Made by a program: the position numbers and the translations under genes | Notes under the pieces: generated by a model | Databases searched by the model: none | Told to the model about the DNA's origin: nothing | Seen by the model: the letters and a program-made list of their open reading frames with translations, nothing else | Shown: positions 18,018 through 18,150 of the stretch, piece by piece | How positions within the stretch are numbered: the stretch's first letter is position 1 | Layout of the letters: each line of letters starts with the position of its first letter | Origin: an uncultured virus (IMG/VR IMGVR_UViG_2522125174_000001) | Lineage: Duplodnaviria; Heunggongvirae; Uroviricota; Caudoviricetes | Reading direction: 5' to 3' (one strand) | IMG/VR virus record: IMGVR_UViG_2522125174_000001 | DNA: 41,071 nt

Positions 18018-18088
18018 GAAAGGGGGCACTCAGCATTCCAAGAAGATATGAGGAGAACTTCCAGTGAGGTAGGAACACCAAGCGCCCG
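18018..18088 (-). ncRNA. Candidate small RNA with anti-Shine-Dalgarno loop
   Basis: Minus-strand TGTG-TATAAT at 18104-18095; 16-bp stem GGGCGCUUGGUGUUCC/GGAAUGCUGAGUGCCC with five G-U pairs; inner loop UUCUCCUCAUAU. Confidence 0.55.
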
Positions 18089-18150
18089 ACCATCATTATA
18101 CACAACACTACCATTTGGGTTAAATTTTATTAAATCAATGTAAATTTAAA

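Follow-up and report, generated by a model that had tools for sequence, protein, structure and literature searches.

The loop of the IS10 antisense RNA, RNA-OUT, starts pairing with the 5′ tail of RNA-IN, as excerpts of PMC4737173 describe. RNA-OUT is encoded in cis and is fully complementary to its own transposase mRNA. Phages carry antisense RNAs as well, and C4 of P1/P7 and Sar of P22 target the adjacent antirepressor mRNA of their own phage. On the host side, gltI is a known target of GcvB in Salmonella, with repression at the gltI 5′ UTR (PMC4474525, in excerpts).

We analyzed 41,071 nt of DNA from an uncultured virus (IMG/VR record IMGVR_UViG_2522125174_000001), and this whole stretch is called the window below. 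It contains a candidate minus-strand sRNA between the terminase large subunit gene (terL) and the portal gene. The candidate resembles RNA-OUT in its size of ~65–70 nt, its single stem and its large open loop, which is predicted to engage the 5′ tail of an mRNA and to cover its RBS (compare excerpts of PMC4737173). A long stem was found, as was an open loop complementary to the RBS near an mRNA 5′ end, namely that of host gltI as predicted from its −10 hexamer. The candidate is not a member of the RNA-OUT class: it lies in a prophage late region, its predicted target is elsewhere on the chromosome, and it is not encoded in cis opposite that target in an insertion sequence. Unlike RNA-OUT, it is predicted to act in trans on a host gene and to pair through its loop only.

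Like C4 and Sar, it is a small structured phage RNA with a loop-borne anti-RBS and with variants that differ in specificity (PMC12197685, in excerpts). It differs in that its best target is a host gene, and it has no Rfam match. It is also comparable to IpeX (acting on ompC), DicF (ftsZ), Esr41 and 24B_1 as an accessory prophage RNA that is predicted to reduce the level of an envelope or metabolic protein of the host (excerpts of PMC12197685). It is distinguished from these four by its target and fold, its own promoter, its paired 5′ and 3′ ends, the lack of a terminator hairpin, and a loop that is swapped from lineage to lineage along with changes in the host leader. With GcvB and the sponges SroC and AgvB it shares the host operon gltIJKL, going by the excerpts of that literature. 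GcvB is chromosomal, Hfq-dependent and multi-target, unlike the prophage RNA, and AgvB, an anti-sRNA of phage origin, increases transporter output, whereas the prophage RNA is predicted to decrease it. Within the literature covered, which was mainly the main texts of open papers without supplements (such as the PMC12197685 table of 38 undescribed phage sRNAs), there was no Mycoavidus phage sRNA and no phage sRNA acting on gltI.

The earlier note had linked the element to the Betaproteobacteria toxic sRNAs (RF02278). Both are short, have CU-rich unpaired anti-RBS tracts and have a predicted effect on organic-acid or amino-acid uptake (PMC5688073, in excerpts). That link was not upheld. The phage record gave no RF02278 match even at E ≤ 1, and the architecture is different: in the part of the source covered, RF02278 RNAs are chromosomal and have two hairpins and a U-tailed terminator, whereas the prophage RNA has one end-pairing stem and no terminator. 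With a covariance-model score of at least 50 bits as the cut-off for membership, G001 and G052 each carry a chromosomal RF02278 copy of 71–72 bits. The one in G052 (G052:C1:2534793-2534853, minus strand) is the single true RF02278 toxic sRNA of that host and has its own promoter and terminator. Rfam 15 gave no match in the window at the gathering scores and none in eight loci at E ≤ 0.5; three snoRNA matches with E of 0.46–8 were due to chance. ARAGORN found no tRNA or tmRNA gene.

The minus-strand element and its surroundings

Table 1. Coordinates of the element, its flanking genes and a possible second target in the window.
Feature	Position	Strand	Basis or remark
Predicted sRNA element	between terL (16503-18005) and portal (18151-19548)	minus	upstream of portal
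−35 hexamer TTAACC, A/T-rich tract upstream	18118..18123	minus	promoter sequence reading
−10 hexamer TATAAT	18095..18100	minus	perfect; 7 nt before first stem G
Stem 5′ arm, 16 bp; predicted +1 = G18087	18072..18087	minus	+1 placed by promoter spacing
Variable targeting loop, 32 nt, type A in the window	18040..18071	minus	comparison of loop types
Seed GAAGUUCUCCUCAU	18048..18061	minus	perfect complement of gltI leader, from just upstream of SD to −3
Stem 3′ arm, then short pyrimidine-rich tail	18024..18039	minus	folding and copy alignment
C-rich, G-poor stretch, possible Rho loading site (putative role)	17924..18023	minus	antisense to terL 3′ end
Terminase large subunit, flank	16503..18005	plus	PHROG 38, E 1e-118
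Portal protein, flank	18151..19548	plus	PHROG 146, E 4e-125
Excisionase (xis) translation start, possible second target	2968..2991	minus	7 + 9 nt bipartite loop match

The window is a temperate myovirus-like prophage with integrase, excisionase, recombination, repressor, replication, terS, terL, portal, head, tail and lysis genes, flanked by repetitive effector-like genes. Its closest named relatives are in assemblies of Mycoavidus cysteinexigens (L010-L012). Mycoavidus is an endohyphal, prophage-rich Burkholderiaceae symbiont with glutamate/aspartate uptake (PMC5877345, in excerpts). The matches to PHROG 38 and PHROG 146 confirmed that the element lies between terL and portal, as had been proposed.

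The two arms form 16 uninterrupted base pairs on the minus strand, five of them G–U, and close the 32-nt loop. The minus-strand fold reached −27.0 kcal/mol (z −4.41), and 0 of 200 shuffles were as stable, versus −17.3 kcal/mol (z −1.14) for the plus strand of the same element. The earlier claim that the stem is stable on the minus strand was thus borne out. The window has three uninterrupted stems of at least 14 bp, with G–U allowed, on its minus strand and none on its plus strand. The 16-bp stem alone is rare, not unique, and it carries weight because a promoter and conservation accompany it. In the centroid structure the loop is open, and its CUCCUC and CCUACCUC tracts are largely unpaired. 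The GAAG/CUUC hairpin suggested within the loop can pair, but only as a weak alternative, with a pair probability of 0.30–0.37 versus 0.41–0.44 for a competing GGA/UCC helix.

The promoter is of the −35/−10 type (TTAACC-17-TATAAT). It had been read as an extended −10; the TATAAT is present, but TG is absent at −15/−14 in all ten copies described below. No intrinsic terminator was found at the element. The bases that follow the stem 3′ arm are AC in nine of the ten copies and CC in the window. The 100 nt downstream of the stem contain 30 C and 13 G, and this C–G excess was reached by 0.3% of the late-region minus-strand windows of 100 nt. On the sequence evidence, the element is real and encodes an uncatalogued, predicted prophage sRNA of 65–70 nt.

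Several neighboring features were recorded. In the early left operon lies the gene for a 2-hydroxycarboxylate (citrate/malate-type) transporter (3301-4635, minus strand; Pfam 2HCT, E 6e-115), which is present in all five intact G052 prophages (split in one) and has about ten further homologues in G052 (20 tblastn pieces). The phage carries one transporter gene as well as an RNA that is predicted to act on another transporter. An F-box protein gene (15628-16407, plus strand) is inserted between terS and terL, and an F-box/LRR gene follows terL in L266 of G002 (1-1290, minus strand). Accessory insertions are frequent in the packaging region. A PIG-L family de-N-acetylase moron lies upstream of terS (14135-14884, minus strand). 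In L003, a PIN-toxin operon (2141-2784, minus strand) with its own promoter, a palindromic operator and a short upstream antitoxin-like ORF is located between terL and the RNA. The same operon was recognized by upstream sequence in L005, L007, L010 and L011. Pfam assigned no family to the antitoxin-like ORF of L003, which we take to be vapB. The window itself has a Phd/YefM antitoxin and PIN toxin pair between cI and the left operon (8911-9602, plus strand). Near-identical TAGGAGAAGCTATTGA(A/C)AT...TTAGCTAGTCCTAATAT boxes at both divergent early promoters (8640-8666, minus strand; 10375-10400, plus strand) are likely repressor operators, and they explain two of the GGAGAA matches. The beta-solenoid repeat gene at 7258-8241 (minus strand) likely starts at the ATG near 8205, behind GGAGAAC, not at the listed ATG at 8241.

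Copies, conservation and loop types

Portal-, pattern- and model-based searches yielded ten copies: one in the window, six in G052, one in G004 and two in G001. All ten are in Mycoavidus prophages, directly upstream of portal. L002, which is identical to the window, and L004, L005, L006 and L008, which are duplicates or near-duplicates of G052 prophages, were left out of this count. The model search gave matches in 2 of the 61 genomes of the family sample, and was convincing in two of the six genomes of the genus. No model match at E ≤ 5 was obtained in 74 distant terL loci (68–77% terL identity) or in L191. In 21 of these 74 loci, viewed by eye, portal appears to start at or just after the terL stop. 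The annotated phage collection returned only matches to the terL end, in 51 records. L007, a close relative, has no element, and in L266 only a fragment resembling the RNA 3′ arm is left before the F-box/LRR insertion. Its absence from L007 and from the distant loci and its fragmentary state in L266 indicate that this phage lineage carries the element as an accessory insertion. In G052, a decayed prophage with a stop and a frameshift in terL and a broken portal still has an intact copy together with its promoter.

Weak model matches (~22 bits) in three genomes, which had one common context and no promoter, were dropped. A pattern scan of metagenomes gave three matches, located in a repeat, at the end of a gene and in the par/rep spacer of a plasmid, which were dropped as within chance by a rough estimate; since they were picked by a self-complementary pattern, the 31 bits that one of them scored on the model are circular. 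The par-rep spacer of a metagenomic plasmid, L020 (1164-1217), has a nearly identical 13-bp terminal stem around an unrelated interior, and is probably a chance match of the pattern.

The promoter geometry is kept in all copies, while spacer and discriminator sequences vary. The −35 hexamer is TTAACC or TTAACT in 10/10 copies, with a spacer of 17 nt in nine and 16 nt in one. In every copy the −10 hexamer (TATAAT, TAAAAT or TAGAAT) precedes the first stem G by 7 nt, and position −1 is a pyrimidine. Across eight distinct sequences, 124 of 128 stem cells are paired. There are 40 G–U against 3 A–C combinations, suggesting that the minus strand is the one made into RNA. Covariation had been proposed as a check on the stem, and the outcome was divided. 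Pairing is kept, but two-sided covariation is weak: stem changes are mostly one-sided wobble swaps, both sides change in only 1 of 16 pairs, and the covariation score of seven sequences was not above the shuffle control (429/500), although slid controls paired in only 35–48%. Taken together, the promoter geometry, the pairing and the G–U excess support the central proposal of the earlier note, a promoter-driven minus-strand sRNA with an exposed anti-RBS loop that would likely act as a translational silencer in the lysogen.

The loops fall into three types: A (the window, G004 and two copies in G052), B (four copies in G052) and C (the two copies in G001). Identity between types is 0.44–0.56 in the loop and 0.62–0.94 in the stem arms; the copies behind these values are related and few, with three loop types from three host sources. 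Among the four type A copies, the loop flanks drift and the seed has two substitutions. Pairing is kept in the seed variants because both changes are C to U opposite G. Type B loops (L026-L029) contain an inner hairpin with the YUNR-like loop UUGAUC or UUAAUC, which holds UCCAGUG. UCCAGUG can pair with the type A loop of L022 and L024 (−15.8 kcal/mol). Type B might hide its own seed or sponge type A.

Complementarity of the loops to gltI leaders

Each loop was scored against 2276 ORF starts of G052, defined by our own crude ORF caller. The best partner of the window loop was gltI, encoding the glutamate/aspartate ABC binding protein (NCBIfam NF008063). This gene opens an ABC operon of four genes, which follows a Glu/Leu/Phe/Val dehydrogenase gene. 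The gltI leaders compared are those of Mycoavidus relatives, not of the window's own host. GAAGUUCUCCUCAU is a perfect 14-nt complement over the G052 gltI SD and reaches −3. Among the exact matches of the window loop to both strands of the 2.8-Mb G052 genome it is the longest, and it falls on the mRNA strand at a start. A 14-nt run at any of the 2276 starts was obtained in 2 of 300 shuffles and in 5 of 300 SD-preserving shuffles. When six genomes were searched with a 19-nt loop pattern, allowing up to 3 mismatches, two RNA copies and the G052 and G027 gltI leaders were the only matches; controls gave 0.

The gltI leaders of six Mycoavidus genomes form two classes. G052 and G027 have GAGGAG-AACTTC(G/C)A-ATGAAA, with ATGAGGAGAACTTC(C/G)A before the ATG. 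G001, G002, G066 and G067 have (G/A)AAGGGG-(T/A)ACTTAGT-ATGAAG, with which type A pairs poorly. Type A loops rank the G052/G027 leader 1–6 of 2276 and the other four gltI leaders 163–1273. In shuffles preserving SD and AUG, 1 of 3000 reached the observed energy on G052 gltI for the window loop and likewise for the G004 loop, values that are not independent of how gltI was found. The best duplex energy over all starts was at chance level, as 10 of 22 SD-preserving shuffles reached −27.3, and when the target window was lengthened, two doubtful starts came before gltI, which was third. Opening the seed costs 2.9 kcal/mol and opening the gltI leader 5.4, with a duplex energy of −21.8. There is one C–A mismatch between the loop and the gltI start codon.

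The type C loops, tested after gltI had been fixed as the hypothesis from type A, ranked their own G001 gltI 5 and 18 and G052 gltI 1148 and 667, with the 2276 starts of G052, not those of G001, as background. The ways in which they differ correspond to the differences of the G001 gltI leader, with which one of them pairs over 10 + 7 nt. In single-target shuffles preserving SD and AUG, 0 and 27 of 3000 reached the energies observed on G001 gltI. The bipartite type C pattern, searched in five genomes, matched only the RNA and gltI of G001 and G067. The complementarity between loop and leader follows the host lineage in two of the three loop types, as judged by sequence.

Type B loops (4 of the 10 copies) did not fit gltI, ranking it 106–1414, and the type B pattern search gave no convincing site. 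The start of an IS110 transposase had the best energy, but 10 of 22 shuffles equaled it, and a transhydrogenase subunit start offered a 10-nt run only; both were rejected. The YqaJ exonuclease start was marginal. A 12-nt match between the loop 3′ part and the start of a T3SS-cluster gene was at chance level (40/300).

The evidence favors a particular host mRNA, that of gltI, over generic anti-SD silencing. GGAGAAY sites in the phage itself had been put forward as targets. They exist at 8215 (minus strand), 20857 and 24563, but are ordinary as targets, ranking 90, 610 and 495 against the 2276 starts. Hfq dependence, also suggested earlier, is not indicated for an RNA with no U-tailed terminator, though all five genomes tested contain hfq.

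Proposed action, competing explanations and purpose

The predicted loop differs between host lineages in step with the gltI leader, suggesting that the RNA likely switches off a host uptake system. In the reading that we consider probable, it is a lysogen-expressed, RNA-OUT-like antisense RNA that would block translation of host gltI, inserted between terL and portal in Mycoavidus prophages. Sigma-70 transcription would begin at G18087 in the lysogen, as expected of a promoter that is directed opposite to the late operon and is of the housekeeping type in its consensus. The 3′ end may arise by Rho-dependent termination and trimming back to the stem. An end-paired stem and processing are known from C4 and P4 CI RNA. 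The end-pairing stem would shield the RNA 5′ end. A closed loop requires a nearby free end to wind a duplex longer than one turn. A TATAAT lies 25–26 nt before the gltI ATG in all six Mycoavidus genomes, which places the predicted mRNA 5′ end a few bases upstream of the pairing site and suits closed-loop pairing. This end would thread the loop, as RNA-IN does with RNA-OUT, and a duplex of 14–18 bp over the Shine-Dalgarno up to the start codon would occlude the RBS. GltI would be lowered, and perhaps GltJKL too, by polarity.

The RNA might instead act inside the phage, as a C4/Sar-like antisense regulator that keeps the prophage quiet through the starts of excisionase (type A) and YqaJ exonuclease (type B), with gltI secondary or coincidental. 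The window's own xis start, with its 7 + 9 nt bipartite match, ranks 3 of 2276, and its targeting would explain the C–A mismatch at the gltI start codon; for type B, a 12-nt match lies at the YqaJ start in 2 of 4 prophages (11/300 and 23/300 shuffles). However, the xis match is not significant once the SD is fixed (337, 1753, 70 and 1475 of 3000 for four loops, the window being 337), the G004 copy has lost the 5′ part that pairs with xis while keeping the gltI seed, the xis site is more structured than the gltI leader (8.1 versus 5.4 kcal/mol), and one type B variant breaks the YqaJ match. The longest in-phage matches of the window loop are 9 nt. We regard this reading as unlikely. Silencing of many host mRNAs through their RBSs, like the Burkholderia double-hairpin toxic sRNAs, is improbable. 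In its favor, every loop type contains a pyrimidine-rich anti-SD tract, which in most of them is accompanied by anti-start bases in register; there are further good starts (nusB in one copy, coaD, the IS110 transposase and the transhydrogenase subunit), and Hfq is present. Yet the SD-complementary tract and the gltI SD change jointly from lineage to lineage (the tract being CUCCUC or UUCCCUUC), seed specificity reaches 8 nt past the SD, no match other than gltI recurs across loop types, and RF02278 is not matched.

Only a slim chance is given to a cis or plus-strand function, either antisense damping of leaky late transcription across terL-portal or an AgvB-like mimic of the gltI leader that sponges a host sRNA. 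The RNA is fully complementary to the late transcript, read-through into terL is expected since there is no intrinsic terminator, the plus strand resembles the gltI leader, and in five loci the promoter also points into the vapBC-like operon. Against this, the structure and the G–U bias are specific to the minus strand, a cis role would not call for a loop that follows gltI, the host RF02278 sRNA pairs poorly with gltI and plus-strand loops (ranks 563–2195), the element is found without vapBC and vapBC without the element, and the plus-strand mini-ORF is not conserved. Neither generic anti-SD silencing nor these cis and plus-strand roles account for host-matched pairing past the SD. This mini-ORF (ATG AGG AGA..., with rare codons that are presumably CreT-like) was rejected as a candidate, as neither its frame nor its length is conserved. 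It is very improbable that the element is a non-functional insertion remnant resembling gltI by chance: it is missing in L007 and truncated in L266, two-sided covariation is weak and the genome-wide energy is not significant, but the fixed promoter geometry, the G–U/A–C ratio of 40:3 and the host-matched pairing in two lineages argue otherwise.

If the RNA silences gltI, its purpose could be superinfection exclusion, in which an envelope route taken by incoming phage or toxins would be shut; we propose this tentatively. GltJK is a CDI toxin entry route in Burkholderia multivorans, for which GltI itself is dispensable (PMC9291907, in excerpts), and blocking of phage receptors in the inner membrane by a prophage protein has been described (PMC6832061). 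Against exclusion, G052 holds five intact related prophages, and the loop type does not track tail-fibre or tape-measure identity. The literature search found no paper that connects GltI with phage entry. A role in metabolic tuning, through amino-acid uptake, is almost as likely as exclusion, and is plausible because the phage carries a 2HCT transporter. A bolder and doubtful view is that of a programmable antisense cassette, whose fixed promoter and stem would hold an exchangeable loop copied from a host 5′ leader and retargeted between hosts; it would provide RNA-guided superinfection exclusion by shutting GltIJKL, the transporter then being an entry route of phage or toxins, with type B directed to a second host gene.

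Identified host targets are rare among phage sRNAs. A loop that tracks a host ribosome-binding leader across lineages would, if true, be direct sequence evidence of phage-host co-adaptation at the RNA level. The scaffold would be a compact translational repressor, possibly Hfq-independent, with natural specificity variants. It would single out GltI/GltJKL as something that Mycoavidus prophages pay to silence, and may lead to a phage entry route of Mycoavidus or to the control of amino-acid drain from its fungal host.
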